From: Escherichia phage fp01
Length of the DNA stretch: 64,000 nt
Sequence record: NC_048731.1
Reading direction: 5' to 3' (one strand)
Below, in pieces: positions 2,668 through 64,000 of the stretch; the first letter of the stretch is position 1, and every line of letters begins with the position of its first letter. The notes under the pieces were generated by a model, which did not search any database, was not told the origin of the DNA, and saw only the letters and a program-made list of their open reading frames with translations. The translations under genes were made by a program, and so were the position numbers.

Positions 2668-2672
2668 TCCGT

Positions 2673-31667: not shown

Positions 31668-34501
31668 TCCACAGACTGTTCTCCATCATCTCCTTCCGCT
31701 CTAATACGAAAATATAGTTTTCTATTGATTCCTAGAGCATCACTATTATGAAGAGCAAAATCTGCCTTATTATACATTAATAAATAGTCATAAGTATACT
31801 GATTTTCAATACGTACACTTCTTAGCATTCTATTCTGGGAATCATAGATTTCCAGAGTATAGAATATACTTTCTATTATATCTTCTTCTGGTATCCTATC
31901 CCAAGCTAGTTTTACATCTGGGCCTACAAATTCAGTTACATCCCCAGAAGCCGTATTAGTTACCCTAAAATTAGATACTACGCTTAGGTTTTTAGCAGAG
32001 TTAAGTTCTATAGATAATGTTACTGGAGAACTTCTCCTACCATTTATATCCACAGCCCTTATTTCAAATATTGCTAAACCTGCAGGCTCTCCAATTATCT
32101 CTTGGATCATGCGTTCATTGGGATTTGTTTCTAGTTGCTGCACAATATAAGGCTCAGCATGACCGGAATGCACGATAGAGTAATAAACTACGTTATTAGT
32201 TAAACTTGGAAGCCAGGATAACTCACCATTTTTTCCTATGGAACCAACTAAACCACCAGGTGTAGGAGTATATTTAAAATCTCTAGGAGGAAGAACATTG
32301 TTACTAATATCTGGTATATCATTACCACTATTATCTACTTGATCAGAGTTGATAAATACATCTTCCCCATACTCCTGTAGAGTAACATTTATCTTTCCTT
32401 CCCTAGAGTTTTCGACTTCATCTACTAAAAAGTACTTCTTATCCCATCCGTAACGGTCGTATGTAAATGCAATAGCATCATTAGGCTCAATACCAATGAA
32501 TTGATATGGTAAAGAAAATGAGAGGGTTCTAGAATACCTAGATTTCTTAAGTTCTCTGTCTGCAAAACTTCTAGCAGTATAGTAGTTAGTTATATTTGCA
32601 AAAGATAATTGTAATTTTTTGTCTAAATTTTTATCTTGCTCTTTATATCTAGAGTTATAAAAGGTAATAGAGTTAGTTTTCCAGCTAAGAGCTGGGTCTA
32701 CGATAGATGCTTGAACTGAGTTGAATTTATTTCTACCAGTAGTATCTGATAGCTCTAAATCACCATAAGTATCCAGAAAATTAATTTCTAATGGAGTATT
32801 AGAATATTTTTCTACAGTAATCCTATATTGACCCGATAAGTTGTTAATAGCCCCACCGTAGGATTCTAGTAAACCTTGAACATTTTTAAATACTGATTCA
32901 GATGTATCTAGAATAGTATTCATTTGTACTATTTGTCTATTTTCTGCTAATGGATCAGTCCACCCAACATATCTCCAGTATGGCTGCCAGGATACTTGGT
33001 AGGATTCATCTATAATATCTAGGATAGCAGCTTCTTGTACCAATTGTTGGAGAGGGAACTGATCAATAGCAATGTTTGCACCATACCTATCTGAAGTTAA
33101 GTAGTCAAGTGTTTGCCAAATACCATTTAAACTAGTACTATTAGCAGTTACTCTACCATCAGAATGGTAGATTTTTATCTTCTTACCCTGAATCTCAGCA
33201 CTAACTTCTGGAATCTCAGTTCTATTTTCATTAATAGTAAAGCGTACTACCGCGTATGCAGTATCTAATAGTTTATATCTAGCATCCCAGTACTCAGGCC
33301 CATTACCGTTCATACTTTGGAGATAGAACCCACGCTCCTTCGCTATATTTACTAATACTTCAGAAGCCGTTTGATCAGCTTTTCCATGATAAGTCCAAAT
33401 CCTTATATCACCATTACCATCGTTATATTTATATTCCTGGCCATGCACAGAAGGACTACTAGAAGACATTCCTGATGCTATTCTCTGCATGGTGTCTCCT
33501 GCTACTTTTTTAACACCGAAACAGGTTCTAGCAGAGCTATCATTAGAGTCCATACAAATCATAGGGTTATCCCCGAAGGAAAAGTCAAGAAAACCGTCTA
33601 TCTCTCCTTCAGCAAAAGCATATACTACGTAAACTATATTAGGATTGTGTAATTCCGTATCCGCAAAAATAGGTATTCCCGGTATTTTCTGTACACCATA
33701 AACTACTGGTATATACTTAGCAGCAAGGTTAAAATCTATATCTACTTCTTTAGTAACAGTCTCATAATACTTTTTAAGACTATAACTTCTAGATAGTCCA
33801 AATAGCTTTTTCTTAGACTTTAGCTTGTATCTTTCTTCCTGTACCTGATACTTTGCTAGAATAGAGATACTTTTATTGGCGTGAAAGAAACCGTAGTCTT
33901 CTTGGTACTCAAGTCTTTTAGCCCCATTAGATGGAAGTAATTGTCCTGCTACAACTTCAAGCCCTCTATGAGAAGCATCATCAGTAAATCTACCATTAAC
34001 CCTATCAAAATCATAGAATTGGTTAGAACAATTCCAAGTAATTGTGGAGGTTCCAACTCCCGAAGTACTAATATTATCCTTAATACCTCCACCAGTAATT
34101 CTACCTCTAAAGTATAATAAAGGCCCATTTGTGTCTGGGTCTACAGGTAAAATAGAACCATCCTCTGTAATAATTGCTTGATGAATTGATACTAGTCTAT
34201 CTAAAAAGGACACACCATTCTGCACTAATTTCAGTACTTCATCCTGCGCTGTACCTGTAATAGTAAAAGATAGGCTGCCAATAGATAAATCTCTATTTTG
34301 TTTATGTGTGCTAATAGACTTAACTTTACCGGCCTGGTACAGAATACCGTTATATAGTACATCTCTAAAATAGTCAGTTAAGTAAATAAAAGCAGTACTA
34401 GTACCAGTAGAGCCGGGTAATTCTAGAGAAATTAGACTAGCAGTTTTTATTCTGCTATTATTTTTTAAGTAGTTTCTAGCACTATCTAATATTTTTTTCA
34501 T
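31652..34501 (-). CDS. baseplate hub protein (pb3-like)
   Basis: 949 aa immediately downstream of the distal tail protein gene. Confidence 0.6.
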   Translation of the reverse strand: MKKILDSARNYLKNNSRIKTASLISLELPGSTGTSTAFIYLTDYFRDVLYNGILYQAGKVKSISTHKQNRDLSIGSLSFTITGTAQDEVLKLVQNGVSFLDRLVSIHQAIITEDGSILPVDPDTNGPLLYFRGRITGGGIKDNISTSGVGTSTITWNCSNQFYDFDRVNGRFTDDASHRGLEVVAGQLLPSNGAKRLEYQEDYGFFHANKSISILAKYQVQEERYKLKSKKKLFGLSRSYSLKKYYETVTKEVDIDFNLAAKYIPVVYGVQKIPGIPIFADTELHNPNIVYVVYAFAEGEIDGFLDFSFGDNPMICMDSNDSSARTCFGVKKVAGDTMQRIASGMSSSSPSVHGQEYKYNDGNGDIRIWTYHGKADQTASEVLVNIAKERGFYLQSMNGNGPEYWDARYKLLDTAYAVVRFTINENRTEIPEVSAEIQGKKIKIYHSDGRVTANSTSLNGIWQTLDYLTSDRYGANIAIDQFPLQQLVQEAAILDIIDESYQVSWQPYWRYVGWTDPLAENRQIVQMNTILDTSESVFKNVQGLLESYGGAINNLSGQYRITVEKYSNTPLEINFLDTYGDLELSDTTGRNKFNSVQASIVDPALSWKTNSITFYNSRYKEQDKNLDKKLQLSFANITNYYTARSFADRELKKSRYSRTLSFSLPYQFIGIEPNDAIAFTYDRYGWDKKYFLVDEVENSREGKINVTLQEYGEDVFINSDQVDNSGNDIPDISNNVLPPRDFKYTPTPGGLVGSIGKNGELSWLPSLTNNVVYYSIVHSGHAEPYIVQQLETNPNERMIQEIIGEPAGLAIFEIRAVDINGRRSSPVTLSIELNSAKNLSVVSNFRVTNTASGDVTEFVGPDVKLAWDRIPEEDIIESIFYTLEIYDSQNRMLRSVRIENQYTYDYLLMYNKADFALHNSDALGINRKLYFRIRAEGDDGEQSVEWASI

Positions 34502-46017: not shown

Positions 46018-46500
46018 TTAGCCTCCAACACCGGGATTAACAGTAGCCACACACTCGTTAGAAGTAATAGAAACGGATTTACTATCCGTTACCACAACTT
46101 TATAAGTGCCAGCATCTTCCGCAGCAGCTGTAGCTTTGTTAAAGTTAGGACCAGTAGCACCACTTAGCGGGGAACCATCTTTAGTCCAAGCATAAGTATA
46201 AGGTGCTGTACCTCCAGTAACTGTTACACCAAGATTAATTGCTGCACCAGTTTCAACTGTTAGAGTTTTAGCTAAATTTTTAGTGAAGGCTAGAGCAGGT
46301 ACTGCTGGACCAGCCTTACCATAAGCCTCTACAAATTTCTTCCATACTTTGCGGTTAGTATGCGCAGATGAAAGTCCTAGTTCTCTACGCAGAAAAGCAT
46401 AGCTAGGAACATATTTATGCGCAGCAACCGTAGCAAAGAAGATATGAGATTCTGGTAGTTTTTCACCAAAAATGGTCTTTAGACCACTATAATCAATCAT
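46018..46500 (-). CDS. capsid decoration protein with Ig-like domain (pb10-like)
   Basis: 160 aa; C-terminal Ig-like beta segment. Confidence 0.5.
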   Translation of the reverse strand: MIDYSGLKTIFGEKLPESHIFFATVAAHKYVPSYAFLRRELGLSSAHTNRKVWKKFVEAYGKAGPAVPALAFTKNLAKTLTVETGAAINLGVTVTGGTAPYTYAWTKDGSPLSGATGPNFNKATAAAEDAGTYKVVVTDSKSVSITSNECVATVNPGVGG

Positions 46501-47714
46501 TCTTTATCTCCCTCGGTGGAACCTTGAGGTCTACCACCTTCTTGACCGGATACGCCTGTTGCAGAACCAGCGACGTTAGCAGGAATACGAATCTTATTCA
46601 TCTGCTCATCATCTAAAGGCTCAAGGTTCAGCTCTAAACGAGCTTCGTTACCAGTTATAATACCATTATTAACCAATGAGGTTAAATGTTTAGCCTCAGA
46701 TTCTTTATCTGGTGTTAATGCAGCTACTTCCTTAGTATTAGGAGTAATCTTATAACCAAAAAAGAAAGTAAGAGAACTAGTCAGCTTGTTCAGCATAGGG
46801 ATGATAGTCATATAATAGAACAGTTCGATATTTGGTCGAATGTTCGCATTATTACCACCATCAAGTAGCACTTGCGGAACACCAAAGGCTAGACAGATAG
46901 ATTTATTAAATCCTTCAATGTCTTCCTTAAAGTCTAGATCTTTAAAAGAGGATATTTGGGAGTACGGTTTAGCTTTCATACCACCATCTAGAATCAGGAC
47001 AGAGGACTGACCAGTACTAGGATTATAATCTAGTTGCAATTCTTCTTGTTTACGCTCACGCAATTTCTTGTTCAGGATTTCATCCGTCTCAAGAATAAGA
47101 CCAATCACGGTTCCGTTATCGAGGAATTTCTCTTTAAAGTTAAGCATCTTAGAACGCTTCTCAAGAGAATCAATAACAGTAGCAACACGAGATTGTCCAG
47201 AAATTTGAGAATTTGTGCCGCACACGTAACTGTTATCCTTTATAAAGATAATCTCATCTACGCGATAGTCTATCTGATTATTAAATATAAATTTTTTGAT
47301 AAACTTATTGGCATCTGCCTCTACTTGCATTAGTGCAGCAGGGACATGGTAAAGTGCTGTGCCATCCCAATAGATGTATGCACAACCTTCAAAGAGTAGG
47401 TCAGTGACTACAAGTCTACGGAATGTGCTTATATCCATGAATGGATTAGGTCGTACATTTAAGAGAGTGTCTAGAGTCTTTGTCTTGATGCCATTGGCAT
47501 ATGTGACAATATTATATTTATCTCCGACAGTATAAGAACACTCCGCCGCACTATCTATAACCATATTAGCAGTTCTATTGAGAATCTCAATTTTACTGTA
47601 GGCTTGTCCAGTGGTAAAAGGCTTACGGTTAGTGCGATGACTAACTGGTTCCATGTCTCTTATAATACGTTGACCCGGATTTAGCTTTTCAGTAATCCAG
47701 CTTTTAAAACCCAT
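46497..47714 (-). CDS. portal protein
   Basis: 405 aa immediately downstream of terminase region and upstream of protease. Confidence 0.75.
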   Translation of the reverse strand: MGFKSWITEKLNPGQRIIRDMEPVSHRTNRKPFTTGQAYSKIEILNRTANMVIDSAAECSYTVGDKYNIVTYANGIKTKTLDTLLNVRPNPFMDISTFRRLVVTDLLFEGCAYIYWDGTALYHVPAALMQVEADANKFIKKFIFNNQIDYRVDEIIFIKDNSYVCGTNSQISGQSRVATVIDSLEKRSKMLNFKEKFLDNGTVIGLILETDEILNKKLRERKQEELQLDYNPSTGQSSVLILDGGMKAKPYSQISSFKDLDFKEDIEGFNKSICLAFGVPQVLLDGGNNANIRPNIELFYYMTIIPMLNKLTSSLTFFFGYKITPNTKEVAALTPDKESEAKHLTSLVNNGIITGNEARLELNLEPLDDEQMNKIRIPANVAGSATGVSGQEGGRPQGSTEGDKE

Positions 47715-48151
47715 TATAAGAACCTTGCGAATCCTGATTTTGTTTCAGTCTTGACTTGTGTCTTTTCTTGAGGATTCTGTAATTTGTCTTTCTGCTTTTG
47801 AACCCACACTTTTTGCTTATTAGCAGAAAATAAGGGAGGTTCTTTTGTGTAAACCTTATGTAATAATTGGTGATGGTGTACACAAAGGGTAACAGTGTCT
47901 TCTACTAGCTCATGCCTGTATCGATCATAGAATGCCGTCCTATTTGAAAGGACTGTTTCTTCGTCAGTGAAATCCAGTTGGAGTTCTTTAGCAAATTTTT
48001 TAACTAGTAGAGACACCGTATGGTAATGATGAAGCTCTAATTCTTCAGCACAACCGCAGATAGCACATTGAGAGTCTTTTTTATATTGACTTTTTATTCC
48101 GTCTCTCATAAGGGATATAGCATCGCGTTTATATTTTACATTGCTTGCCAT
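47714..48151 (-). CDS. HNH endonuclease
   Basis: CAICGC...HHYH...CVHHH..LH zinc-finger HNH motif; start set at internal ATG with RBS GAGGAG. Confidence 0.65.
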   Translation of the reverse strand: MASNVKYKRDAISLMRDGIKSQYKKDSQCAICGCAEELELHHYHTVSLLVKKFAKELQLDFTDEETVLSNRTAFYDRYRHELVEDTVTLCVHHHQLLHKVYTKEPPLFSANKQKVWVQKQKDKLQNPQEKTQVKTETKSGFARFL

Positions 48152-48265
48152 AGTGTTCTCCTCAACTGTATGAATATAGTATACATAATCGTATCGAATT
48201 TGTAAAGGGGATTTTAAAATGCAGGAATGGGATACCAACTGAGTAGTATCCCATCCTATACTTAT

Positions 48266-49582
48266 TTATTTACCACGGGAAATAGAGTAAATTCCATAGC
48301 GCAGAGCATCACAAAGGTGAGAGTTAGCATCATGACGTGGTTTTTCACGTGATAATTTCTCTTCGCCTTCTTGGAAATCCCACTTGTAGTTCTGCAATGC
48401 ATGGATTAATGAAGAGCATGAAGCGTCTACAATAATCTTACCCTGTTGGAATAGTGCTTGTAAACATGCTAATCCATCTAGGACAGATTTTTTAGCTGGA
48501 GCTGATGCAATTTCATGTTCGTAAGCTAAGTCCTGGCGGAACTGAGCTGCCGCGGAATCAACGAAGATACGATCTACGTTATAACGATCTATACAGTGCT
48601 GAATATACGCAGCATGCTGAGCTGTAGTTTTCTCTGCCTGCTGGTACTCTTCTAATACATAGTAAGTATCTGTATCATAATGATACTTGATAGTAAGAAC
48701 TGCTGTAGGATCACGATAACCAACGTCAATGCCAAGCAATGTTTCGAATGCTTCATCATCTTTAAAGAAGTGACGCATACCTTTAAGGTCTTTAACATGA
48801 TCGATAGCATTAAAGGTATCAAAGATCTGACCTTCGAATACAGAGAAGTCAGCCTCATATTCCTGACGGAAGTAGTTTTTACTAACAGTACGACGTGCTT
48901 CTTCGATGTCATTCAGGTCAGCACGTGGATTATCACGATATGTACCATGAATAGACACCCAGTTAGGTAATGTATCATCAAATCCATAGGCATAAAACTC
49001 TTTAAACCAGTTACCACCACGAGGAGTAGAGATAAATAGAGCCTTAGAATTAGGTTTATCTAGAGTAGGGCGCAGCTGAACCCTAAAGGCATCACCACCC
49101 ACATCGGAAATTGCCGCCTCGTCAAAGATGATAAAATCATATGAACGTCCAACTGCGGAGTCCGCCTGAGCCGCAGAAGCTAGTTTAAATAGAGAACCAT
49201 TAGCTAACTCAATCTCTTTATCTTTAGCATTCTCACGTTCAGTTTGCAACCCATACTTCTTAATAAGACCACGAATCTGAGACCATCCGATATTGGCCAG
49301 TGAGTAGTTAGGGGCAACTACTAGCACCTTCACATTAGGTTCCAGCAATTTTAGGAACCCAAGTGTATATGCTATAAAGGATTTGCCTACACGACGTGAC
49401 ACACACGCCGTTACAAAACGATGTCTAGGGTCCTCTAAAGCATTAATAATTGCTATTTGAGGACCATTAGGTGTAATACCTTCTTGCGCTAGTATTCCTG
49501 AAACCGGTAGACGAAAGAAACGTTTGTCTATTCCGAAATCAATAACATCTACTGTATTAACGTAGGGTCTTGATACTTCCAT
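48266..49582 (-). CDS. terminase large subunit
   Basis: Walker A VSRRVGKS, Walker B DFIIFDEAA, C-terminal nuclease-like region; 438 aa. Confidence 0.85.
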   Translation of the reverse strand: MEVSRPYVNTVDVIDFGIDKRFFRLPVSGILAQEGITPNGPQIAIINALEDPRHRFVTACVSRRVGKSFIAYTLGFLKLLEPNVKVLVVAPNYSLANIGWSQIRGLIKKYGLQTERENAKDKEIELANGSLFKLASAAQADSAVGRSYDFIIFDEAAISDVGGDAFRVQLRPTLDKPNSKALFISTPRGGNWFKEFYAYGFDDTLPNWVSIHGTYRDNPRADLNDIEEARRTVSKNYFRQEYEADFSVFEGQIFDTFNAIDHVKDLKGMRHFFKDDEAFETLLGIDVGYRDPTAVLTIKYHYDTDTYYVLEEYQQAEKTTAQHAAYIQHCIDRYNVDRIFVDSAAAQFRQDLAYEHEIASAPAKKSVLDGLACLQALFQQGKIIVDASCSSLIHALQNYKWDFQEGEEKLSREKPRHDANSHLCDALRYGIYSISRGK

Positions 49583-50064
49583 TACTTCTTACCTCCAGTA
49601 GCTAGGGAAGTAATTAAGTCCATGTAGTTTTGATCCCCAGCTCCAGCAATAATATTATTCTGGATGTTGGTCTGATTGGCTGGAGTACGGGCTGCTGCCT
49701 TCACTTTCTCCAGTTCTACCATCATTTTCATTTCTTCCATCTTCATCTTGTGTGCCTTCCAGAGAATATCCATAATATCCTGGTCAGAACCCATGCCGGT
49801 TTCTTCTAGCTCCTCTAGTTTACGCTTGATAACTTCATCCAGAACACCAAATAAACGATCTCTGTTACGGAAACCACTCTCCATAAAAATATCATTTAAG
49901 TAGTTCTTAACTTCACTACGATTCATAATATCTCGAAAAGCAATTTCGGACATCCCAAGACTACGTGCGGCAGAAGGCACATCGCTGCCGCACTGTAAAT
50001 AAGCTTCAATCACATCCATCCCTTCAGGGGACATAAGATCTGGTACTAATACATCATTTGCCAT
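49582..50064 (-). CDS. putative terminase small subunit
   Basis: 160 aa, N-terminal HTH-like [17 protein letters not shown], coiled-coil C-terminus; immediately upstream of large subunit. Confidence 0.45.
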
Positions 50065-52837: not shown

Positions 52838-52947
52838 TTTGACTTTTGCCAAATTTCATAAGATTACACATGGAGGTGTGCCCAGTGGGTTGGGGGAGAA
52901 TACTTAGTCTGCTAACCGCCACCCCCGTTACTATTACCTTGCTAACT

Positions 52948-52986
52948 GTTTCATCCTGTAACCATTTTAATTACAGGATGAAACTA
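52948..52986. promoter_or_regulatory. perfect hairpin downstream of dmp-like gene
   Basis: gtttcatcctgtaa-ccatttta-ttacaggatgaaac, 14-bp perfect stem; no clear U-tract. Confidence 0.4.
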
Positions 52987-53001
52987 TGTCAACTTTAATT
53001 A

Positions 53002-53736
53002 TTACGCAACTTTTAATTTCTCAATATATTGTTGCGGGCTGCAACTATATTCTGCGCGTTCTTCCTCGGTCATACTTTCCCAACATAATTTCAAACGATC
53101 GGCTAGGAACTGATAATCATTATCATCCTCGAGGGATTCATCAATAAAGGTTCCGCCTATCAATGCCACGCCGATTGATAGAATATCATTAACGGCTTGC
53201 GCATCTAGCGTTTTAAATCCATATGACGCAGCCGCTGATAATACACCTTTATGATCATCAATCATTGTAAAATCAGCGTTCGGATATAGCTGTTTAAATA
53301 ATTCAAAGTAATAACTTTTGTATACTGCGTCCTTGCTGTGGTATATCTCGCTAACCTTATCAGCCTCAAAATATTTATGCAGTGTATCGCGGGAAAATAC
53401 ACGGATATTACTATCACCACGCCCGCGCAATCCTTGTTTGCGCAAATAATAATAATCCGACTTGCTCATCAGCCGAGCGGTGCAAATAATGTTTAAAGTA
53501 TTTGAGTCATTCATACATTGGCGCATATATTCCACCAAAGGTAATAAGGTGTCTTGCATTATTAAATCATGTTTACACGCTTCATTTTTATACTTATTTA
53601 AATTTAAATTCCCGTCGCTATCAAAGCAAGGCGCTACACGATGGAAAGAATTAATGATAGTGCCGTCCAGATCCCAAATCATGACGCGGGAAATATGCGG
53701 GAAATTACGGGAAATATTCATAATAGCTTTATTCAT
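53002..53736 (-). CDS. dmp: HAD-family phosphatase, 5'-deoxynucleotidase (Dmp)-like
   Basis: HAD motif I IWDLDGTIINS, motif II-like ICTARL, motif IV-like MIDDHKG; 244 aa; location in pre-early region next to A1-like gene. Confidence 0.5.
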   Translation of the reverse strand: MNKAIMNISRNFPHISRVMIWDLDGTIINSFHRVAPCFDSDGNLNLNKYKNEACKHDLIMQDTLLPLVEYMRQCMNDSNTLNIICTARLMSKSDYYYLRKQGLRGRGDSNIRVFSRDTLHKYFEADKVSEIYHSKDAVYKSYYFELFKQLYPNADFTMIDDHKGVLSAAASYGFKTLDAQAVNDILSIGVALIGGTFIDESLEDDNDYQFLADRLKLCWESMTEEERAEYSCSPQQYIEKLKVA

Positions 53737-53815
53737 TTGTTACGTTCTCCATTAAAGGGATGTAGTTTATCCAGCACTGCCCGCTATTTATAAGCGGGCA
53801 ATAATAAATCAACTA

Positions 53816-54223
53816 TCAAAGACCATAAGCCAAAGCATCGGCGATAAAACTAATATCTTCGCCGGATATATGGGAACGAATACCCGCGCAGATATACACC
53901 TTTGCGCTTGATAGCTGATCATCAAAGCAAGCCGGACAAGGCGCGACAACTGCAAACGCAAGGCCAGCTTTCACGGCGTCAATGATAATCGTTTCTTGTT
54001 TCACCGTATCAACATAAACGCCTGCGGCCTTGATGTAACTACTTGCGCGGCCTTGCGTATAGGCGAAAGTCGTGATCTGTAGCGCCTCATTAAATTCGAT
54101 TAAATCATCAACAACGTGACCGGCCTCAACGTGATACCGCTCACCATTAGAATAAACCAGAACGATTGAGGATTGAGCGCGATCGAATGGAATATTTTGC
54201 TTTTTCATATTTATAAACTCCAA
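53816..54223 (-). CDS. hypothetical pre-early protein (A2-position)
   Basis: 135-aa ORF between A1-like and dmp-like genes; contains HVE...PCPAC. Confidence 0.4.
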   Translation of the reverse strand: MEFINMKKQNIPFDRAQSSIVLVYSNGERYHVEAGHVVDDLIEFNEALQITTFAYTQGRASSYIKAAGVYVDTVKQETIIIDAVKAGLAFAVVAPCPACFDDQLSSAKVYICAGIRSHISGEDISFIADALAYGL

Positions 54224-54274
54224 TTAATTTAATAAGGGGCATAAGCTGGAAGTATTTCCAGCTTATAAATTTAA

Positions 54275-55954
54275 TTATGCGAAAAATTTGCCGTTTTTAA
54301 AGTCAATCAAAGTGCGTTGCCCGTTGGCGTATGTAATTAAATGCGTTTGCGTCCAGCTTGACGCGCCAACGTTGTAACCCATATCCAGACTACCAGCTAC
54401 GCCAGCGGTATAAACGCCGCCATAAATGCTAGCGGTGTGAGTGTGTCCGGTGTTTAACTTGCCCAATTTCTTAAACTGCTTAGGATTGCCACGGCTGCCG
54501 TTTATGCCGTTATGACCGTGTACACCACACTCAATGCCTGCAATTTTGAATGATTGATCAGTCGTTAGGAAAATCGCGTTAAACTCGCAACCTGCGACGC
54601 TACGCAGCGCATAATCTAGCACGTTGAAAGTATCGTCATGATTACCGATTGCCGCGTAAATTGCAGCATTAAGGCGGTGATATAGTTCCGCATTGGCTGG
54701 GTCGTCTTTAATGTTAGCATTACGATCATCAAGCCAACGAGATAGCGCCAAATCGTGATTCGATTCAACAATGATCGTTTGACTAAAATCACGCTCCATC
54801 GATTCCAGCACGCGCCCGGTATCGATAAGATCATCAATAACCTTATCCCGTCCGGCTGCATACTGTTTCGCTAGAAATACACCGGAAGCGCGGTTATGAT
54901 GATTGCGCGATGTAAAATCATGCACGTCATGGATAAACTGATATTTAGGCTTGAGAATATCAAGCAAACTATTGTCGCCAGCCCATGACGCTGCGGCGCA
55001 CTCCTCATCTAATTTTTCGGCGTGAATGTCACCATACTGTAAGCCTAAAACATGCCCCGATGTTTCATAGCATCCGGCGGGAGTAGCGCAAACATTCAGA
55101 TCATAAAACACCCCGCTTTCATCCATTGTTTCAAGCTGGCGAACAAAAAATTCACCGTCCTCATCGAACTCGACAATCAGCGCACCAAAGTTATGAAGTG
55201 CTTCCGCTTTCTGTCCTGCTTTCTGCTGAATGTAGTTTTTGAGTGTTGCCGTTCCGGTTGAATACATGCGGCGCACCACTTCACCTTTTAAAGCTGGGAC
55301 GCTTTCGGCGGTGATTTTAGCGTGACCAATTGCCAGACCCTCGATATTTAAAGCCGTTGCAGTTTCTGCAAATCCAGAAAGCGGATAATCTGCGGTTGGC
55401 AAAACATTAATTTCAGCCATGAAAGCAAAACGGCGGTTATTTAAAAACACGTTTTTGCTGCAAATATACTTATCAAAAGCGGAATCATATTTGATTCCGT
55501 CAGCACCTTCCCCATTTTGGAATCCGTTTTTATTATAAATATACTTAGAAACAAGCAAATCAGCGCCGATAAATTTGGCATATTGTTCAAGCGAGGACAA
55601 AAAGTTTTTATGCGGGAAAGTATTATTCTGAATCGATGTAATAATAAAGCGTTTGCCTTGTTTTACTTCCCACTGTTCCACGGTACTAGAAACAATTCCA
55701 GCCGCTTCGGGGCGCTCATCGTTTTTAATGGCTTTTACCGCTTTCGCCGCTTTCGGTTTAGCTGGTTTATTTGCTTCCAGCCAGTCGCAGATAGCGGTTG
55801 AATGTTTTGCAGTATCGTAAACCGCTTTTGATATATCGTCGCAGACCTCCAATTTAGTAGCGCGCAGACGTTTACCATAGAAATTAAAGTCAGCGGCTAG
55901 TTTCAGGATAGCGGTTTGTTTTTCTGCGGAAAAAATCATAGTAATAAACTCCAT
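54275..55954 (-). CDS. A1: A1-like pre-early protein with metallophosphoesterase-type nuclease motifs
   Basis: 559 aa; calcineurin-like motifs GDIHAE and GHTH; GC-rich composition; position matches T5 A1. Confidence 0.55.
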   Translation of the reverse strand: MEFITMIFSAEKQTAILKLAADFNFYGKRLRATKLEVCDDISKAVYDTAKHSTAICDWLEANKPAKPKAAKAVKAIKNDERPEAAGIVSSTVEQWEVKQGKRFIITSIQNNTFPHKNFLSSLEQYAKFIGADLLVSKYIYNKNGFQNGEGADGIKYDSAFDKYICSKNVFLNNRRFAFMAEINVLPTADYPLSGFAETATALNIEGLAIGHAKITAESVPALKGEVVRRMYSTGTATLKNYIQQKAGQKAEALHNFGALIVEFDEDGEFFVRQLETMDESGVFYDLNVCATPAGCYETSGHVLGLQYGDIHAEKLDEECAAASWAGDNSLLDILKPKYQFIHDVHDFTSRNHHNRASGVFLAKQYAAGRDKVIDDLIDTGRVLESMERDFSQTIIVESNHDLALSRWLDDRNANIKDDPANAELYHRLNAAIYAAIGNHDDTFNVLDYALRSVAGCEFNAIFLTTDQSFKIAGIECGVHGHNGINGSRGNPKQFKKLGKLNTGHTHTASIYGGVYTAGVAGSLDMGYNVGASSWTQTHLITYANGQRTLIDFKNGKFFA

Positions 55955-56033
55955 TAAAGGGATAAAAAACGTTTGTTATTGGCAATATTGCCAGATATAA
56001 CGCCTTGAATAATAGGCGTTATAATTTGCAACA

Positions 56034-56231
56034 TTAATTTAAAGGCATAAGGCTAGAACTAACACCACAAACAACGGCGGCAATAAAACAAATCAGACCT
56101 AAACGCTTCGCTAACTTAGATTTGCGTTTAAAATAATACGAATCTAAGTCATTTTGAAAATATGCGAACAATAACGAGGCCGCCATAATAAATAGTCCTA
56201 GAATCAGCGATTCAGTAGGGTAAAAGATCAT
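56034..56231 (-). CDS. small membrane protein
   Basis: Two hydrophobic helices; start set to internal ATG with RBS TGGAG. Confidence 0.35.
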   Translation of the reverse strand: MIFYPTESLILGLFIMAASLLFAYFQNDLDSYYFKRKSKLAKRLGLICFIAAVVCGVSSSLMPLN

Positions 56232-56288
56232 TTTAATAACTCCAGTTAAAGGGAAATTATAGTGGGGAATAATCCCCACTAGTTAAAT

Positions 56289-56696
56289 TTATTCACCTGC
56301 GGCCTGTTTTACTTCATCGGCAACGCCTAACAACTGCGCCACGGCGTCCAGCGTTTCCAGTTTCGCGCTTTCAAGGCTTGCCAGATCATCGGCGTCTTTG
56401 ATAATGCCGGAATCAATAGCGTGTTTTGCAATTACTCGCACATAATGAGCCTTGCGGATTGAACTGCCGCCGCCAACTTTGCGCGGCTTATCGCTTTTTT
56501 GATAGGCTTTCGCGCTGGTCAATTTTGAGCGAACGGATACGGGAGAAGTCGCGCCCACTGCCTTTGCAATCTCTTTCAGGCCGTCGCTATTTGCAAATTC
56601 TAAACCGTTTTCGTTGATTAACTGCTGATACAGGGTAACAGCTTTTTGGGTGTTGTCTTCATTCCAAGTGAATTTTGCGGTTTTTGCGTTAGTCAT
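56289..56696 (-). CDS. hypothetical pre-early protein
   Basis: 135-aa ORF, E. coli-like codons, RBS GGAG. Confidence 0.45.
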   Translation of the reverse strand: MTNAKTAKFTWNEDNTQKAVTLYQQLINENGLEFANSDGLKEIAKAVGATSPVSVRSKLTSAKAYQKSDKPRKVGGGSSIRKAHYVRVIAKHAIDSGIIKDADDLASLESAKLETLDAVAQLLGVADEVKQAAGE

Positions 56697-56794
56697 GGTA
56701 AAAACTCCAATTAATTTAATTTAAGGGATTAGATTAACTAATGTTAATCGTTATAACCCTCCTTATTCTAGGAGGGTATAAAGTTAACACTAAT

Positions 56795-57046
56795 TTATAA
56801 TACAGCTTCCCATTTTTCGTTGCGTTGAACAACCTTTACAACATCGCCTGATTTAACGCGAACGTTATAAACGGTTTTGCCGTTGTTACTGCGTTCTGTT
56901 TCAGCGTATACCGCGTCGATTGTATCGAACGGCATAAGCGCCGCGCCTTTAATACGTTCGGCCTTTCCGGTTAATTCATCCGTTTTAGTAACGAAAGGAA
57001 TAAAAACGGATTGACCAATTTTAGGCGTGGTAATAACGTTTTGCAT
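56795..57046 (-). CDS. hypothetical pre-early protein
   Basis: 83-aa ORF with RBS GGAG. Confidence 0.4.
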   Translation of the reverse strand: MQNVITTPKIGQSVFIPFVTKTDELTGKAERIKGAALMPFDTIDAVYAETERSNNGKTVYNVRVKSGDVVKVVQRNEKWEAVL

Positions 57047-57246
57047 AATATAGACTCCAGTTTATTCAGTGGATTGTTCCGCATTACCTGCTAGAAAATA
57101 ACAGGTAATAAGAAAAAATCCGCTCGCCATTATAAAATCAAATTAAAGAACTCCACGCGGGCCGCTATATCCCAGTTAGGGGGCGAGACACATTATGGTA
57201 AGTGCCGACCGTCAAATTGTATCAAGTTATCGCTCTTTTCGAACTG

Positions 57247-57271
57247 GGTATATCTTAAAAGCCCATCGGCT
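57247..57271. repeat. left arm of a 25-bp inverted repeat flanking a two-gene cassette
   Basis: GGGTATATCTTAAAAGCCCATCGGC; reverse complement with one mismatch at 57670-57694. Confidence 0.8.
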
Positions 57272-57277
57272 AGGTTG

Positions 57278-57478
57278 TCAAACTATTTTTTGCAGTTTTT
57301 TATGATTTTCCTTCAGGTCAATCATAATATTACGCCAGATCATTTCTAAACCTTGCTGGCGCCCTTTCTTGTACTGCGTGAAGCGGTATTTTACCGATCT
57401 TTGCGCTACTGTCAATAATTTTTTAGTTTCGCTATCCAGTGCCTTGCTAGGTTTACCAGTGATCAATAGAGTTTGCAT
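57278..57478 (-). CDS. hypothetical small basic protein
   Basis: 66 aa, Lys/Arg-rich; start overlaps upstream stop (TAATG). Confidence 0.35.
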   Translation of the reverse strand: MQTLLITGKPSKALDSETKKLLTVAQRSVKYRFTQYKKGRQQGLEMIWRNIMIDLKENHKKLQKIV

Positions 57479-57636
57479 TATTTGAGATCCTCCAAAGCGT
57501 ATAAACCTTTGCCATCATTGCAGATTATTACTGCTTCTGAATAGGTGGCATGATATTCGTTTGCCGCTTTTACCCATTGCTCGATCTTTTCGATCGTGTC
57601 GTGGGTAGCTGGATGATCGTTATATATTGTTTGCAT
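57478..57636 (-). CDS. hypothetical small acidic protein
   Basis: 52-aa ORF found by hand (below the track length cut-off); RBS AAGGA 9 nt upstream; translationally coupled to the next gene. Confidence 0.3.
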   Translation of the reverse strand: MQTIYNDHPATHDTIEKIEQWVKAANEYHATYSEAVIICNDGKGLYALEDLK

Positions 57637-57669
57637 ATCGTCGATTCCTTATAATGAATAAGTTTACCG

Positions 57670-57694
57670 CCGATAGGCTTTTAAGATATACCCA
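57670..57694. repeat. right arm of the 25-bp inverted repeat
   Basis: GCCGATAGGCTTTTAAGATATACCC; embedded in a local palindrome agtttaccgccg...cggcggtaaact. Confidence 0.8.
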
Positions 57695-58148
57695 ATTTTT
57701 AAAGAGCGCGGCGGTAAACTCCCCGCCGTGTAGTTCGTCATTGCCGCCCTACGAGATAAATAATAACAAACAACGAAAAAGGCGCAACCTTATATTTGTA
57801 AAGAAATGTAAAGACAAAATCCACCGGACACCGTGCGGCGATCTGGGCGCGACGGCCTAAAATTAAAAGAAACGGGCGCGCGAATACCACAAAACACAGC
57901 AGATAAGCAAGTAATTTTTTCATTTATATTTGCTTTGCCCTACTTGACAAAATCTAAAAAGCTCGTGGCGACGATAAACGACGTGGCCCCTTATGATTGG
58001 ATGGCTAAAAACTTTACTGCGTTCTGGGGCGTTTCAGGCCGCTTATTTTCGACTTAACAAATCATTAACAAACGCAAAATTGAAAAATAGTTGGAAAAGG
58101 TCTTGACTTTTAAAAATCAAGACCAAATGACTTAATTTATTAAATTAA

Positions 58149-58667
58149 TTAATTGACAATTCCAAATTCAGCTTTTTTAGTTTCAAGCCATAATAATAAC
58201 TCTTGTAAATCATAACCTGACTTACTAACACGCTTGTTAGTAATAGGATTCTTAATTTGAGCAGTCAAATAGTCACGCCCGTAACTATCACGGGGGCGAA
58301 CTTTATTAACGTAAATGTTTTTAGGGATACCATTAGCACGCTTACAGTTTTCATACTCACTAGGAGTACGATTATAATTATTCTGCGAACTATCAACCGC
58401 GCGAAGATTCCAGATGTTATTATTACGAGTGTTACGATCGATATGATCAATCATTAGCTCGCTATCTATACCGCCATTCATTATACAAAAGATAATTCTA
58501 TGTACTTTTAACTGTCCCATGCCTAATAGTTCAACTTGCCAATAATTACCATTTAAACCACCTGCGACGGCGTGATCTTCCCGCCAACGTAAAAATGATA
58601 ACGCTGTTTCATCATAATAAAAGTAACTATTAAAAAGATCATAATCTATATCTTTATATTTACCCAT
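58149..58667 (-). CDS. HNH homing endonuclease
   Basis: HNH signature MIDHIDRNTRNNNIWNLRAV (H-x-D...N...N); AT-rich codons unlike the GC-richer neighbours. Confidence 0.65.
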   Translation of the reverse strand: MGKYKDIDYDLFNSYFYYDETALSFLRWREDHAVAGGLNGNYWQVELLGMGQLKVHRIIFCIMNGGIDSELMIDHIDRNTRNNNIWNLRAVDSSQNNYNRTPSEYENCKRANGIPKNIYVNKVRPRDSYGRDYLTAQIKNPITNKRVSKSGYDLQELLLWLETKKAEFGIVN

Positions 58668-58931
58668 TGTTATAGTTTCCTTATGTTATTAATTTAATCT
58701 CTATTATATTATATCAAAACAATTAGCAGACTAGCTAATGAGTTTTTCAGGTTTAATTAGCAGACTCATAATCACTCTAAAAACCTATTAGCCAACTAAC
58801 TATATTTTATTATATAATAACTGTATAAATTAGTTAGTGAGAACCACTATCATTTAAGTTACCCACAGCCTTATACATTTTGTAAAATAATTTGACACAA
58901 TAGGCGGCGATATGAGGGCTTTTACACAGAC

Positions 58932-58940
58932 TTATCCACA
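58932..58940 (+). promoter_or_regulatory. consensus DnaA box
   Basis: TTATCCACA exact match to the DnaA box consensus. Confidence 0.5.
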
Positions 58941-58950
58941 GGTTATTCCA

Positions 58951-58966
58951 CTGTATAAATATACAG
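58951..58966. promoter_or_regulatory. LexA (SOS) box-like palindrome
   Basis: CTGTATAAATATACAG fits CTGT-(AT-rich 8)-ACAG. Confidence 0.4.
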
Positions 58967-59232
58967 GGTAAAAAGGTAGTGTTAACAACTGCAATCAATT
59001 TTAAGCGGCCTAAAACGCTTTCTAACGAGCTAAACGCTGCGGGGTAGTATTAAAGTAAAGCCTTCACCCGTCGGCCTGGTGGCTTCGCCGTGTCTTGCTC
59101 TTTACTACACCGCTGCGCGGTTAGCATAAAACTAGGTGTTAGGCAAGGAAAATAAAAAAGTAAAATAATCTTTGCCTATGCTAGAAAATTACCCTTATCA
59201 TTCACTCACCGATTAACGAGGGAGGCCAACAA

Positions 59233-60219
59233 ATGCGGCTATATAAACCAGATAACGCAACCGTCTTAAAAGGTGCGCTGCGTAACCTGCTGGACGGTAG
59301 CAGAACAACCAGCATTAAACATTTTGTTTTCAATATTGAAACTATTCATCAAAACTTTTTTGATGATTATGATGCTTACAATATGAATAGTTTTCTACCG
59401 TTATATAAGCAAGGGGCAACGCTTGTTTTATATAATCAGGATTATCAATTACTTACTAGTAGGGGGCCGGATACTGATTTCATAGTCGTAAAAGGCAACA
59501 CAGTAAAAGCCTATGATACTGGGGCGGGCTTAGAAGTTTTTTCAATAGAAAACTATGAAGCCAATGATAATGATCTTTATGACGTAGAAAATTTTCTTGA
59601 TTCATTTTGGCGTTATTTATCAGTTGGCTGGAATCGGTCGGATTCTGATGGGTATCGTTTTGCGGCTATAATGGCCTTTGATGATAACGGTAATTTTTTG
59701 CTACCGTCGGAGTTATATAATCGGGTATATGAAGGCGATATTGTTGACGCCGGATTTTCTTTCGAAAGGGAAGAAAGTATTGACAGTATAGAAAAACATG
59801 CTGTAAATTCTAACACTAAAAGCGTTCACACTCAAACTACTGAAAACAAAGGAAAAAATGCCATGACCAAGATCGCTAACATCGTTGCCGCCAATAAGTC
59901 TGCCGTTGTAAACGCTGCAAAACTGGAAGCGGGTAAAATTGCACTGACTCAAATTACGAAAGTAGCGGCTAAAAAAGCACCGTTCATGATCAAAGGCTAT
60001 ATTGATACGCCGATTGGTCGTGTAGTGATCGCTAACCTGCTGAGTGTAGCGGTTGACCAGTACGCCCCGAGTAACCAGAAAGCGAAAGCGGTAGCAGGGG
60101 CGGCTATGGAAGCGGCGATGTTGGAAATGGTGCAAAGTTTTAACATCGCTGAGATGATTGATGAAATGGTAAAAGGTATCGATATTTCTACTTTCACCAC
60201 TAACACCGAAAGCGAGTAA
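59233..60219 (+). CDS. hypothetical pre-early protein (328 aa), two-part composition
   Basis: RBS GAGGGAGG; C-terminal third Ala-rich with E. coli-like codons. Confidence 0.45.
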   Translation: MRLYKPDNATVLKGALRNLLDGSRTTSIKHFVFNIETIHQNFFDDYDAYNMNSFLPLYKQGATLVLYNQDYQLLTSRGPDTDFIVVKGNTVKAYDTGAGLEVFSIENYEANDNDLYDVENFLDSFWRYLSVGWNRSDSDGYRFAAIMAFDDNGNFLLPSELYNRVYEGDIVDAGFSFEREESIDSIEKHAVNSNTKSVHTQTTENKGKNAMTKIANIVAANKSAVVNAAKLEAGKIALTQITKVAAKKAPFMIKGYIDTPIGRVVIANLLSVAVDQYAPSNQKAKAVAGAAMEAAMLEMVQSFNIAEMIDEMVKGIDISTFTTNTESE

Positions 60220-60283
60220 TAATAACTAGCGGGGTAACAATCCCCGCTTTACTATTCCCTTGTTAATTAATAGGAGGCTAATT

Positions 60284-60601
60284 ATGCAGCTTAACAAAAA
60301 AATGCTAGAACAATTGCGGGGTAGAATCCAGCGCGATGACTACCCTCACATTAATTATTCTTCGGAAGTAGTAGACACTGCCGATTCATGGAAAAAAGCA
60401 GGTTACCCCTATGTATGGCAACATGCAGAAAGCGCAAACGGATTCCATGCCTTTCGTGATTTAGGTCATGGAAAACTTTGCGTTTTTAAAGGTGAGTTAT
60501 TAATAGGAGTATCAGAATCGGAAGTAATCACGGATGAGGTTGTATTCTTAGACAATGACCAATATGAAACAGGCAATCAGTTTTATTTTCCCGCTAATTA
60601 A
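60284..60601 (+). CDS. hypothetical protein
   Basis: Start at ATG 60284 behind TTAATTAATAGGAGGCTAATT; the track start at 60260 lacks an RBS. Confidence 0.4.
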   Translation: MQLNKKMLEQLRGRIQRDDYPHINYSSEVVDTADSWKKAGYPYVWQHAESANGFHAFRDLGHGKLCVFKGELLIGVSESEVITDEVVFLDNDQYETGNQFYFPAN

Positions 60602-60615
60602 TAGGAGGCTAATTA

Positions 60616-61110
60616 ATGGCTGAAGAAAAATATGGCTTCTCACTGGGAGAAGTGAGCACGGCAAAACATGATATGATCATTTTAGTCGATTGTCATACTG
60701 GCTATTGCGGGGAAGGGAATACCGAGGAATATTTTGTTCCTGCTGGTACGGATCTAGACGCTTTCGCTCAGGAAATGGCTATTGATAATGCTTCTCGTTT
60801 TGGTAGCGATGGCTATGAAGACGAGGAAACTGGCGAATGGTATGAAAATGAAAACGTATATGCGAGCCTTTATCATTATCAATTAAGTAAATCCGGCACA
60901 TATGTAAACGGCGGCGATCCTATTAATTCCGTCATGAAATTAATTATTAAACACGGTGGCGTCGAGATAATTGATAACAAAGCGGTAATATATGCAAACC
61001 GATTAAAACAGCTTGTTTATATCCCTGATAGTACCCGATGGGATGAATACGCCGTTTTGCATGACGAATTGAAACGATGTTTCAATGTTGAAGCCTTACA
61101 AGTAGTCTAA
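60616..61110 (+). CDS. hypothetical acidic protein
   Basis: Preceded by the same TTAATTAATAGGAGGCTAATTA element; 164 aa. Confidence 0.45.
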   Translation: MAEEKYGFSLGEVSTAKHDMIILVDCHTGYCGEGNTEEYFVPAGTDLDAFAQEMAIDNASRFGSDGYEDEETGEWYENENVYASLYHYQLSKSGTYVNGGDPINSVMKLIIKHGGVEIIDNKAVIYANRLKQLVYIPDSTRWDEYAVLHDELKRCFNVEALQVV

Positions 61111-61123
61111 TGTAAAGTTTTGT

Positions 61124-61152
61124 AAAGGTCGCCTTTTATGGTGGCCTTTTTT
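61124..61152 (+). terminator. putative terminator followed by an extended -10 element
   Basis: aaaggtcgcc-ttttat-ggtggccttt (G-U wobble stem) then TTTTTTGCTATAATG. Confidence 0.4.
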
Positions 61153-61216
61153 GCTATAATGCCTTTACACCGTTTGAGGACGGTTGAAAATTTTCCCAAA
61201 AATTTGGAGGCTTAAA

Positions 61217-61447
61217 ATGGTTGCTTATTCTTCTTCTGACGCTCTTTTCACTGGGAAAGGCTGGGTATCTAATCGCTGGATTATTCAAGAAATGGTGCAA
61301 GAATACGGCATTGCTAAAACTTACACTACCATTCAGGCGCTTTATGATAATGATCAAATCGATCAGCAAACGGCGGGCTTTTTGCTGGATACCCTGAAAG
61401 CGGAACACTGTACCAAAAAACAAGCGGCAAAAATTGTTTTAATGTAA
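61217..61447 (+). CDS. hypothetical protein
   Basis: ATG at 61217 with RBS TGGAGG; 76 aa. Confidence 0.35.
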   Translation: MVAYSSSDALFTGKGWVSNRWIIQEMVQEYGIAKTYTTIQALYDNDQIDQQTAGFLLDTLKAEHCTKKQAAKIVLM

Positions 61448-61496
61448 TTAATAACGGGGCGTTACTTTCGCCCCACTAACTAGGGGAGTAGTACAA

Positions 61497-61679
61497 ATGG
61501 TTATTTTTCGAGCTGTTCTAGCAGGTATCTTGGGCGCTATTTTGACCCTTTTCGCCACCGCGTATGGTATTCAGGATTCCTATTGCGGTTTGGTAAATAC
61601 AAAACCAATGGTTACTATTGGCGCTGGCATTGCTGTATTTTCTTATCTGCTAGGCTGCATGACTAGTAAAGGAGAATAA
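61497..61679 (+). CDS. small membrane protein
   Basis: 60 aa with two hydrophobic helices; RBS GGGGAG. Confidence 0.35.
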   Translation: MVIFRAVLAGILGAILTLFATAYGIQDSYCGLVNTKPMVTIGAGIAVFSYLLGCMTSKGE

Positions 61680-61681
61680 AA

Positions 61682-61894
61682 ATGATCCGCAACGTTTCTC
61701 TTGCACGTTCGAAAGGCTTTAAGCTGGTGGATGCTAACACGTTCGAGCGTCTTGATTGTAAAATCGAATATGTAGCACGTAACAAAAATGCCTTTCGTGT
61801 TACCGAGAAAAAATTTGACAAGCGCGGCAACGTGATCGCTGAAACGGTTAAACACTTTGCCACCTTTTACGCTGCGTTTCGTGGGGTGTTATAA
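61682..61894 (+). CDS. hypothetical small basic protein
   Basis: 70 aa; starts 3 nt after previous stop. Confidence 0.35.
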   Translation: MIRNVSLARSKGFKLVDANTFERLDCKIEYVARNKNAFRVTEKKFDKRGNVIAETVKHFATFYAAFRGVL

Positions 61895-61895
61895 A

Positions 61896-62240
61896 ATGGT
61901 TATTTATGAAGGCAATCGTTTTGTTGCTAATTGCCGCCCGGCATTGTTAGCAAACTATTTAAATCAGCTTTCGCCAGCTTATAAGGGCGTTATTAATATT
62001 TATGAGGGCAAGGCACATTATAAAATTAATGCGGTCGTTGCCCGTGAACTAGCATTTCAATTTTTGACCTTTGCATCTTGTGACGTTCAAGTTATGGGTG
62101 AAGCATTAATTGCGGAAAATGAAGAGGATTTTATTAATATTTTCCGCAAGGTATGCACCGAGCGCCTGATAATGAAAGGCGCGTATATTCAATCCACTGC
62201 GGATAGTATTGAAACAGCGTTTCGAAAGGTGGCACAATGA
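61896..62240 (+). CDS. hypothetical protein
   Basis: ATG at 61896 directly after upstream stop; 114 aa. Confidence 0.35.
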   Translation: MVIYEGNRFVANCRPALLANYLNQLSPAYKGVINIYEGKAHYKINAVVARELAFQFLTFASCDVQVMGEALIAENEEDFINIFRKVCTERLIMKGAYIQSTADSIETAFRKVAQ

Positions 62241-62395
62241 AAAAGTTTTTAATAGCTGGCATGTTTCCTTTGTTGCCTTATGTAATTTGCTGGGCTTTAT
62301 ATGCTCATGGTGCTAGTGTTCCCGGTGTGGCTGCATTTGGTGTATCAGCGGGCTTTCTAGCCGGACTACTAGCAAGCGTATATTTACGCAAGTAA
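62237..62395 (+). CDS. small membrane peptide (52 aa)
   Basis: Hydrophobic throughout; ATGA overlap with upstream gene; found by hand. Confidence 0.3.
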   Translation: MKKFLIAGMFPLLPYVICWALYAHGASVPGVAAFGVSAGFLAGLLASVYLRK

Positions 62396-62414
62396 TTAAC
62401 AACGGAGCGTTATT

Positions 62415-62609
62415 ATGAGCAATAAAATTATTGTAACCAAAACCAGCACAACGGTTGATGTTTTTTACGTGCCCGATACGCCGGAAAACCGACAAGCGGT
62501 CGAGCGTGGGGAATATGATAAAGTGATTTATGATCACGATGGTTATTATCAGTATTTGGTGGATTCATATGGGGAGGAGGAAAAGATCACGCACCGACTA
62601 CCGGACTAA
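62415..62609 (+). CDS. hypothetical small acidic protein
   Basis: 64 aa; RBS ACGGAG. Confidence 0.35.
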   Translation: MSNKIIVTKTSTTVDVFYVPDTPENRQAVERGEYDKVIYDHDGYYQYLVDSYGEEEKITHRLPD

Positions 62610-62650
62610 TAATCACGGGGCGCAACTATCAGGAAGTGCCCCCAATTCTC

Positions 62651-62671
62651 AAATGAGAATGATTCTCATTT
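62651..62671. repeat. perfect 21-bp palindrome
   Basis: AAATGAGAATGATTCTCATTT; related copies at about 63160 and 63220. Confidence 0.7.
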
Positions 62672-62893
62672 GACCGCGCCCGCGATGGTTAGCCTGCTAA
62701 TGGTTAGGGTGTTACGTGTCGCCTTGTGTGATCGTTAGCGAGCTAACTAATTTTCAAGCCTCCTCCAATTTTGCCCTTGTTTTAGTATCCCCACCAAAAT
62801 TAAACGCGTTAGAATGCGTTTGAGGGCGTTTTAGCGGTATATTAGAATTATTCACTGCGTAGGAATACTGTATATTTATCCAGTAGGATAAGC

Positions 62894-62978: not shown

Positions 62979-63007
62979 AAATAATAGTGTTTCTCACTTC
63001 CGTTCTT

Positions 63008-63250: not shown

Positions 63251-63255
63251 ATTTA

Positions 63256-63520: not shown

Positions 63521-63529
63521 GATTGGAGG

Positions 63530-63985: not shown

Positions 63986-64000
63986 GGAGAACCGCCCACT

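Follow-up and report, generated by a model that had tools for sequence, protein, structure and literature searches.

A predicted site-specific nicking endonuclease gene, sciA, between the terminase and portal genes of a T5-like phage

Introduction

What is the role of a small nuclease gene that lies between the large terminase and portal genes of a phage? The question is raised by the packaging module of Escherichia phage fp01, of which a stretch of 64,000 nucleotides (record NC_048731.1, here called the window) was analyzed. The first-pass annotation of this DNA had placed an HNH endonuclease gene at 47714-48151 and offered two roles for its product: a free-standing homing endonuclease, of which a patchy distribution among relatives would be the sign, or a protein that cooperates with terminase in the formation of DNA ends. 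T5 biology offers a further candidate role. In virions of phages T5 and BF23, one DNA strand is nicked at specific sites (PMC10644984, PMC3517423), and the genes responsible for nicking, sciA and sciB, map to the late region (PMC3517423). In a 2012 discussion of older work, the consensus of the T5 nicks is given as 5'-R/GCGCRGG-3', the slash marking the nick (PMC3517423). We asked which of these roles fits the gene in the window.

Results

Genome context and gene neighborhood

Nucleotide comparison of a 3.3-kb segment around the gene assigned the window to a T5-like phage of the Demerecviridae. The segment was 96-98% identical to many T5-like Salmonella and Escherichia phages, among them HMD-P4, Th1, Spc35 and slur09 (97% for the Salmonella phages HMD-P4, Th1 and Spc35), and 468 phage records matched it. 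The window shares the orientation of T5 (AY543070), running from the late genes through the terminal repeat to the equivalent of T5 position 10220 and onward. One copy of the terminal repeat was found, at about 52880-63747. When compared with T5, this single copy, flanked by late genes and by the equivalent of T5 position 10220, indicates at the level of sequence that the window is a collapsed or concatemer-junction representation of the genome.

The gene and its neighbors are arranged on the minus strand as follows, in the order of the reading direction.

49582-50064, minus strand: terS, terminase small subunit (PHROG 3802, 6.5e-91)
48266-49582, minus strand: terL, terminase large subunit (Pfam Terminase_6N/6C, PHROG 2)
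48158-48163, minus strand: Shine-Dalgarno sequence GAGGAG, 6 nt 5' of the sciA ATG (direct sequence reading)
47714-48151, minus strand: sciA coding sequence, an open reading frame of 145 codons plus stop; predicted T5-family endonuclease that nicks at specific sites
46497-47714, minus strand: portal protein gene (Pfam Phage_portal, 9e-50)

The coding sequence of sciA starts with the ATG at 48151-48149, 114 nt after the end of terL, and stops with the TAA at 47716-47714. The portal gene lies directly downstream and its ATG (47714-47712) shares one base with this TAA. The TerL protein of the window was 99.8% identical in amino acid sequence to T5 TerL, and the GenBank records of some relatives label terS 'putative SciB protein'. 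A longer ORF with a TTG start (from 48238) was rejected as the gene, as homologues begin at MA(T/S)N, which corresponds to the ATG start, and the ribosome-binding site precedes this ATG.

Identity of the gene product

The predicted protein was 83% identical to T5.153 (AAS77192.1; 121 of 145 residues). A sequence profile of the family, made from 67 diverse homologues, matched the PDB chains 9qgv_A and 9qgx_A, named 'Nicking endonuclease', over residues 1-141 with an E-value of 5e-61; this was the sole kind of solved structure matched. Since the profile, the structural model (described below) and the sequence identity all lead to these entries and to T5.153, the gene was identified as the orthologue of T5 sciA. 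Its product is thus very probably the counterpart of T5 SciA, the late-expressed site- and strand-specific nicking endonuclease of the Demerecviridae. Our comparisons established that the gene is orthologous, syntenic and core, that the fold and the catalytic and zinc residues are conserved, and that two nick sites are retained; that SciA nicks DNA, that it is specific for GCGC and that the nicks are dispensable was taken from PDB titles, T5 GenBank notes and PMC3517423.

The gene is already known, as its name (sciA), a DNA-bound structure and the exact protein sequence are all public. The same 145 amino acids are found in Salmonella phage Spc35 (ADW80120.1) and in other GenBank entries, and the UniRef name for this sequence is 'Nicking site-specific endonuclease'. 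In the records of relatives the product is called either 'hypothetical protein' (many) or 'nicking (site-specific) endonuclease', and the gene name sciA is used in Gostya9, DT571/2 and Sepoy. A tblastn search with the window protein returned 898 phage records with a best E-value of 9e-83, a degree of conservation well outside what chance would give. In a metagenome protein collection of 5.8 billion proteins the family formed 114 clusters, all of which (114/114) carried the precomputed Pfam assignment PF26848.1. PHROG 3497, described as 'unknown function', matched SciA at 1e-69, and weak matches to PHROG HNH families were obtained at 6e-6 and 2e-3. Scans of SciA against a local copy of Pfam-A and against NCBIfam gave no match at E<=1.

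Predicted fold and conserved residues

The structure of SciA was modeled with AlphaFold2 from the alignment of the 67 homologues. The model had a mean pLDDT of 87.7, and residues 126-145 were disordered. In a Foldseek search it matched 9qgx_A and 9qgv_A with an E-value of 2e-16, a target-normalised TM-score of 0.95, an rmsd of 0.8-0.9 Å and 80% identity. The two entries, both released on 2026-03-25, are titled 'SciA(H42A) endonuclease from Escherichia phage T5 in complex with 10 bp DNA (GCGC sequence 1)' (9QGX) and 'SciA(H42Q) ... (GCGC sequence 2)' (9QGV). All other Foldseek matches had E-values above 0.5, the best of them being HNH nucleases (CBASS Cap5). SciA is therefore likely a member of the His-Me finger superfamily, with the model giving weak matches, to HNH proteins, beyond its own family.

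The Cys/His pattern of the window protein reads C29-x2-C32, H41-H42, C90-x2-H93-H94 and H98. Residues R16, D17, K20, Y23, C29, C32, H41, H42, R71, L89, C90, H94, L97, H98, Y101, P105, Q113, W116 and V117 were invariant in the 67 homologues. In the model, a strand comprising residues 38-42 ends in H41-H42, a second strand (residues 86-90) ends in C90, and the helix that follows (residues 91-101) bears H93, H94 and H98. As modeled, these elements correspond to the beta-beta-alpha-metal core of His-Me finger nucleases. In the model the two core strands are kept apart by three helices of together about 40 residues (46-84) and, because this insertion splits the strands, canonical HNH sequence models miss SciA: the protein had no Pfam match of the PF01844 type, which describes a contiguous beta-beta-alpha-Me core. 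We infer that H42 is the catalytic general base, since both crystal forms with bound DNA carry a substitution at this position. Other HNH enzymes suggest by analogy that C29, C32, C90 and H93/H94 form a structural zinc site, and H98, judged from its position on the alpha helix of the fold, is likely a ligand of the catalytic metal. The three-helix insertion and the N-terminal helix presumably read the DNA. What the first-pass annotation had observed was confirmed at the stated coordinates, and its reading of the motif as that of a zinc-containing HNH-type nuclease was right. The ORF is real, it is preceded by a ribosome-binding site, its Cys/His motif is conserved and it lies downstream of terL and abuts the portal start as described; its designation as an HNH gene has to be qualified, as the protein is not a canonical HNH protein by sequence.

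Past residue ~125 a variable linker of low confidence is followed by a conserved short motif, which is duplicated in many members. It reads GFARFL in the window protein and RFSRFKC, LSSFKV or LLDFMV in other members, and can be written as G-F-x-[RK]-F-[LI] or L-x-x-F-[KM]-V. The PDB chains resolve 119-121 of 148 residues, and the C-terminal tail is not seen in them.

T5 SciA (9QGV/9QGX) has the same length (145 residues), the same position between terL and portal and the fold that is predicted for the window protein, and H42 and the zinc ligands are identical. The two proteins differ by 24 substitutions, 22 of which fall within residues 1-91, a region that includes the nuclease core and the insertion helices. 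At the nucleotide level, the N-terminal two-thirds of sciA were ~78% identical to T5, compared with 94-100% for its 3' end, portal and terL. This pattern may reflect recombination beside a homing-endonuclease hot-spot, or a change of specificity. Because the N-terminal two-thirds are notably diverged, the exact site preference of the window protein could differ from that of T5 SciA.

Nick sites in T5 and in the window

Five 'major DNA single-chain interruptions' are entered in the T5 record AY543070, each of them on the minus strand: 9748/9, 22336/7, 39746/7, 78573/4 and 121279/80. The extracted contexts, AAAA/GCGCAGGGC, GAGA/GCGCAGGGG, GAGA/GCGCAGGGC and GTGG/GCGCGGGCA, fit R/GCGCRGG. One of the major nicks lies ~470 bp inside the terminal-repeat boundary and is present in both repeat copies. 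Three candidate sites were located in the window.

21875-21882 (site 21878), minus strand: candidate SciA nick site G/GCGCGGG (pattern match), homologous to T5 78573/78574
63270-63278 (site 63274), minus strand: A/GCGCAGAG, a candidate nick site of SciA that lies in the terminal repeat (T5 alignment), homologous to T5 9748/9749 = 121279/121280
34243-34250, minus strand: A/GCGCAGG, a further exact match to the R/GCGCRGG pattern, candidate only

The sites of both T5 major interruptions that fall within the span of the window were thus retained on the same strand (2/2, at 21878 and 63274). The site at 21878 reads CAGTAG/GCGCGGGCAA, is an exact match to the consensus and lies in a 302-nt context that is 97% identical to T5. 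The site at 63274 reads ACAAAA/GCGCAGAGCA and is one base off R/GCGCRGG; where T5 has GCGCAGGG at its terminal-repeat nick, the window has GCGCAGAG.

The motif itself was not enriched in the window: RGCGCRGG was found twice, compared with 2.2 occurrences expected from shuffled sequence, and inspection of all 91 GCGC sites in the window revealed no obvious strand bias of the looser GCGCRG. As its count is no higher than in shuffles, such a short motif cannot alone define sites or strand; the same is noted for T5, where the 7-nt consensus occurs on the un-nicked strand too (PMC3517423). Motif counts neither support nor refute the activity of SciA. The terminal-repeat site of the window, GCGCAGAG, is a perfect 22-bp palindrome and presents a site on each strand.

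Distribution and alternative roles

The two roles originally proposed were weighed against the distribution and the surroundings of the gene. As a free-standing homing endonuclease, sciA would be a selfish gene that copies itself into the terL-portal junction of relatives that lack it. Such a reading has some appeal, because SciA is a small stand-alone HNH-type nuclease, the phage is of a kind rich in homing endonucleases, T5 having hegA-hegH, and the locus is an insertion hot-spot. The HNH homing endonucleases of T5 (F-TflI, II, IV; hegA-hegH) come from the same phage family and nuclease superfamily and are likewise encoded by small stand-alone ORFs. The heg genes are variably present and are found mainly in the tRNA and early regions of T5, whereas sciA is a fixed core gene: it was found by tblastn in 898 phage records, compared with 906 records that contain the TerL clade (E<=1e-60). 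Per host genus, the numbers of records with SciA and with TerL were 356/356 for Vibrio, 128/128 for Escherichia, 81/81 for Klebsiella, 10/10 for Proteus, 7/7 for Aeromonas and 267/271 for Salmonella. The order terS-terL-(insert)-sciA-portal was the same in the window, in T5, Gostya9 and IrisVonRoten (Tequintavirus), in Proteus phage 2 (Novosibvirus) and in Vibrio phage Ceto (Cetovirus), and the subfamilies that have sciA at this fixed place share 50-60% TerL identity. SciA divergence tracks genome divergence, with 55-70% identity to the window protein in these lineages and 55% in Vibrio phages. When hegG and hegF, two HNH homing endonucleases of T5, were compared with the SciA family by profile-profile alignment, no similarity was detected. 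Across the family, sciA is core and syntenic and shows no patchiness, and the homing reading is largely refuted by this distribution; we regard it as extremely improbable.

The element that does come and go at this locus is the neighbor of sciA. The relevant features of the window are given below.

48152-48265, minus strand: terL-sciA spacer, the empty form of the insertion hot-spot (comparison with T5)
48225-48256, minus strand: terminator-like hairpin with a 13-bp stem, immediately behind the stop codon of terL (RNA fold and consensus scan; pattern match only)
48178-48206, minus strand: sigma-70-like promoter match TTTACA-17-TATACT upstream of sciA (consensus scan, 10/12; pattern match only)

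Positions 48170-48297 of the window are 99.2% identical to the T5 sequence just downstream of terL, where T5 then has ~740 extra nt comprising T5.154, a T5orf172-type gene of 277 aa that separates terL from sciA in T5 and is missing from the window. The same absence is reported for Erwinia phage Key (PMC10194208). The locus is occupied by an intact 224-aa version in IrisVonRoten, where the annotation calls it a homing endonuclease, by a frameshifted remnant of 518 nt in Gostya9 and by an unrelated ORF of 683 aa in Proteus phage 2. Both T5.154 and the IrisVonRoten version match the Pfam families T5orf172/MUG113, CapR and DUF4379 (treble-clef zinc finger). The mobile element at the locus is thus the T5orf172-type endonuclease gene, and it is this adjacent gene, not sciA, that occurs in intact, decayed and absent forms.

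The alternative that SciA is a terminase-accessory HNH protein, like HK97 gp74 and other cos-adjacent HNH proteins, that it stimulates or completes terminase cleavage and that the ends or the duplication of the 10-kb terminal repeat depend on it, draws on the position of sciA among the packaging genes, next after terL and with its stop coupled to portal. The T5 nick ~470 bp from the repeat boundary and the 'SciB' label of terS, a hint that nicking and terminase are genetically connected, point in the same direction. The HNH proteins of cos phages (the HK97 gp74 type, N.phiGamma and GVE2 HNHE) are also small zinc-binding His-Me finger nucleases of the packaging module (PMC3592412, PMC5304195), and several of them are nicking enzymes as well. 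These proteins match the canonical Pfam HNH family, are encoded beside cos/terS and are needed for terminase cutting; SciA gave no Pfam HNH match and has the helical insertion in its modeled core. The gene lies between terL and portal and not upstream of terS, and T5-like phages have long direct terminal repeats and not cos ends. No GCGC site occurs at the ends annotated for T5 (5'-TGTCCACTG... on one strand, 5'-GAGCCACAG... on the opposite one), and SciA was rejected as the maker of genome ends for this reason. Viable T5 mutants without nicks have been reported (PMC3517423, citing Rogers et al. 1979), so the nicks appear dispensable, unlike the cleavage role of the HNH proteins of cos phages. 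A terminase-helper function is therefore very unlikely. Neither of the two originally proposed roles accounts best for the gene, and the orthologue of the T5 nicking endonuclease is the reading that we retain.

Discussion

According to the proposed mechanism, SciA would be a small, zinc-stabilised His-Me finger (HNH-type) nuclease that recognizes short GCGC-centered sites and cleaves a single strand on the 5' side of the GCGC. These cuts would give rise to the localized single-chain interruptions that have long been known in one strand of T5 and BF23 virion DNA. The gene would be transcribed together with the packaging genes (TerS-TerL-SciA-portal) and translationally coupled to portal and, because of this arrangement, the enzyme would be made during DNA packaging.

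A functional coupling of nicking to packaging is possible, and it is hinted at by the location of the gene, by the translational coupling to portal and by the conserved C-terminal peptide. That SciA is physically tied to the packaging machinery, together with the related idea that enzyme and sites have co-evolved, seems to us rather unlikely. In such a case, the C-terminal peptide may dock SciA on TerL, TerS or portal, and the DNA may be nicked during its translocation. If true, docking would explain the fixed placement of the gene between terL and portal, as well as the cutting of a single strand despite the presence of the consensus on the other one. Likewise, the diverged N-terminal two-thirds of the protein and the changed site GCGCAGAG may represent co-evolution of the specificity with its sites, and not recombination beside the hot-spot.

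The finding is real but ordinary. It corrects the expectation attached to such genes: an HNH gene in a packaging module is not automatically a homing element or a terminase cofactor, and in the Demerecviridae a gene of this kind is, on the reading preferred here, the enzyme behind the classic single-strand interruptions of T5.

Nicks of a comparable kind are found outside this family. Like T5, phiKMV-like phages and Pseudomonas phage tf have strand-specific virion nicks that appear late in infection at a short consensus; PMC3517423, which describes them, names no nickase gene for these phages. Their consensus sequences, such as TACT/RTGMC in Pseudomonas phage tf, differ from the R/GCGCRGG of T5 (PMC3517423).

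Insertions in the terL-sciA spacer

The spacer between terL and sciA (48152-48265) is an insertion hot-spot. In the window it occurs in the empty form, with 99.2% identity to T5 as far as a breakpoint near 48170, and the following elements occupy it in T5 and two relatives:

T5 (AY543070), 105773-106606: intact T5orf172/GIY-YIG-like putative homing endonuclease gene
IrisVonRoten, 2928-3602 of the terL-sciA locus (L007): intact T5orf172/GIY-YIG-like putative homing endonuclease gene
Gostya9, 2483-3000 of the terL-sciA locus (L001): frameshifted remnant of 518 nt

The same spacer of Proteus phage 2 holds an unrelated ORF of 683 aa. Two candidate signals, recognized by consensus match only, were located on the minus strand of the window spacer, and both are retained in T5:

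within 48178-48256 (-): terminator-like hairpin with a 13-bp stem, directly 3' of the terL stop
within 48178-48256 (-): promoter-like TTTACA-17-TATACT, after the hairpin and upstream of sciA

Divergence of sciA and the SciA C-terminus

The divergence of sciA from T5 was uneven. The 5' two-thirds of the gene (47901-48151) had ∼78% nucleotide identity with T5, while the sciA 3' end (47714-47900), the portal gene and terL had 94-100%. At the protein level TerL was 99.8% identical to that of T5, and 22 of the 24 amino-acid differences between the two SciA proteins fell within residues 1-91. The 5' divergence may have arisen by recombination or co-conversion beside the endonuclease hot-spot; alternatively, the specificity of the enzyme may have shifted.

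At the C-terminus of the SciA family (alignment A1 of SciA homologues; window 47714-47791, residues ∼121-145), a disordered linker leads into a short conserved motif. This motif takes forms such as GFARFL, RFSRFKC, LSSFKV and LLDFMV and is present in duplicate in many members. The motif is unresolved in the SciA chains of the PDB and looks like a putative partner-docking peptide.

The terminal repeat and its candidate nick site

The terminal repeat of roughly 10 kb is present only once in the window (∼52880-63747), and the equivalent of T5 10220 onward (63748-64000) follows it directly, which indicates that the source assembly either collapsed the repeat or was closed into a circle across it. 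GCGC sites were far denser in the terminal-repeat region than in the late genes.

At the candidate nick site in the repeat the window has a perfect 22-bp palindrome, GCGCAGAGCAATTGCTCTGCGC (63256-63277), and A|GCGCAGAG can therefore be read on either strand, the two copies lying 22 bp from each other. A G-to-A change is mirrored in the opposite arm. The T5 site has GCGC in one arm only (GAGCAGGGCAATTGCCCTGCGC). The 11-mer core of the site, AGCGCAGAGCA, was also found at 48298-48308 (+), inside the terL 3' end and ∼30 nt before the stop. As any given 11-mer is expected about 0.03 times in the window by chance, this copy could still be a coincidence.

In GenBank, the records of several relatives (Spc35, ABTNLsp4, S124) give the terminase small subunit gene (49582-50064, -) the label "putative SciB protein". 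By the title of Rhoades (1984), as cited in PMC3517423, sciB is a T5 locus whose mutation raises the nick frequency; if the label is correct, TerS would be tied to the control of nicking.
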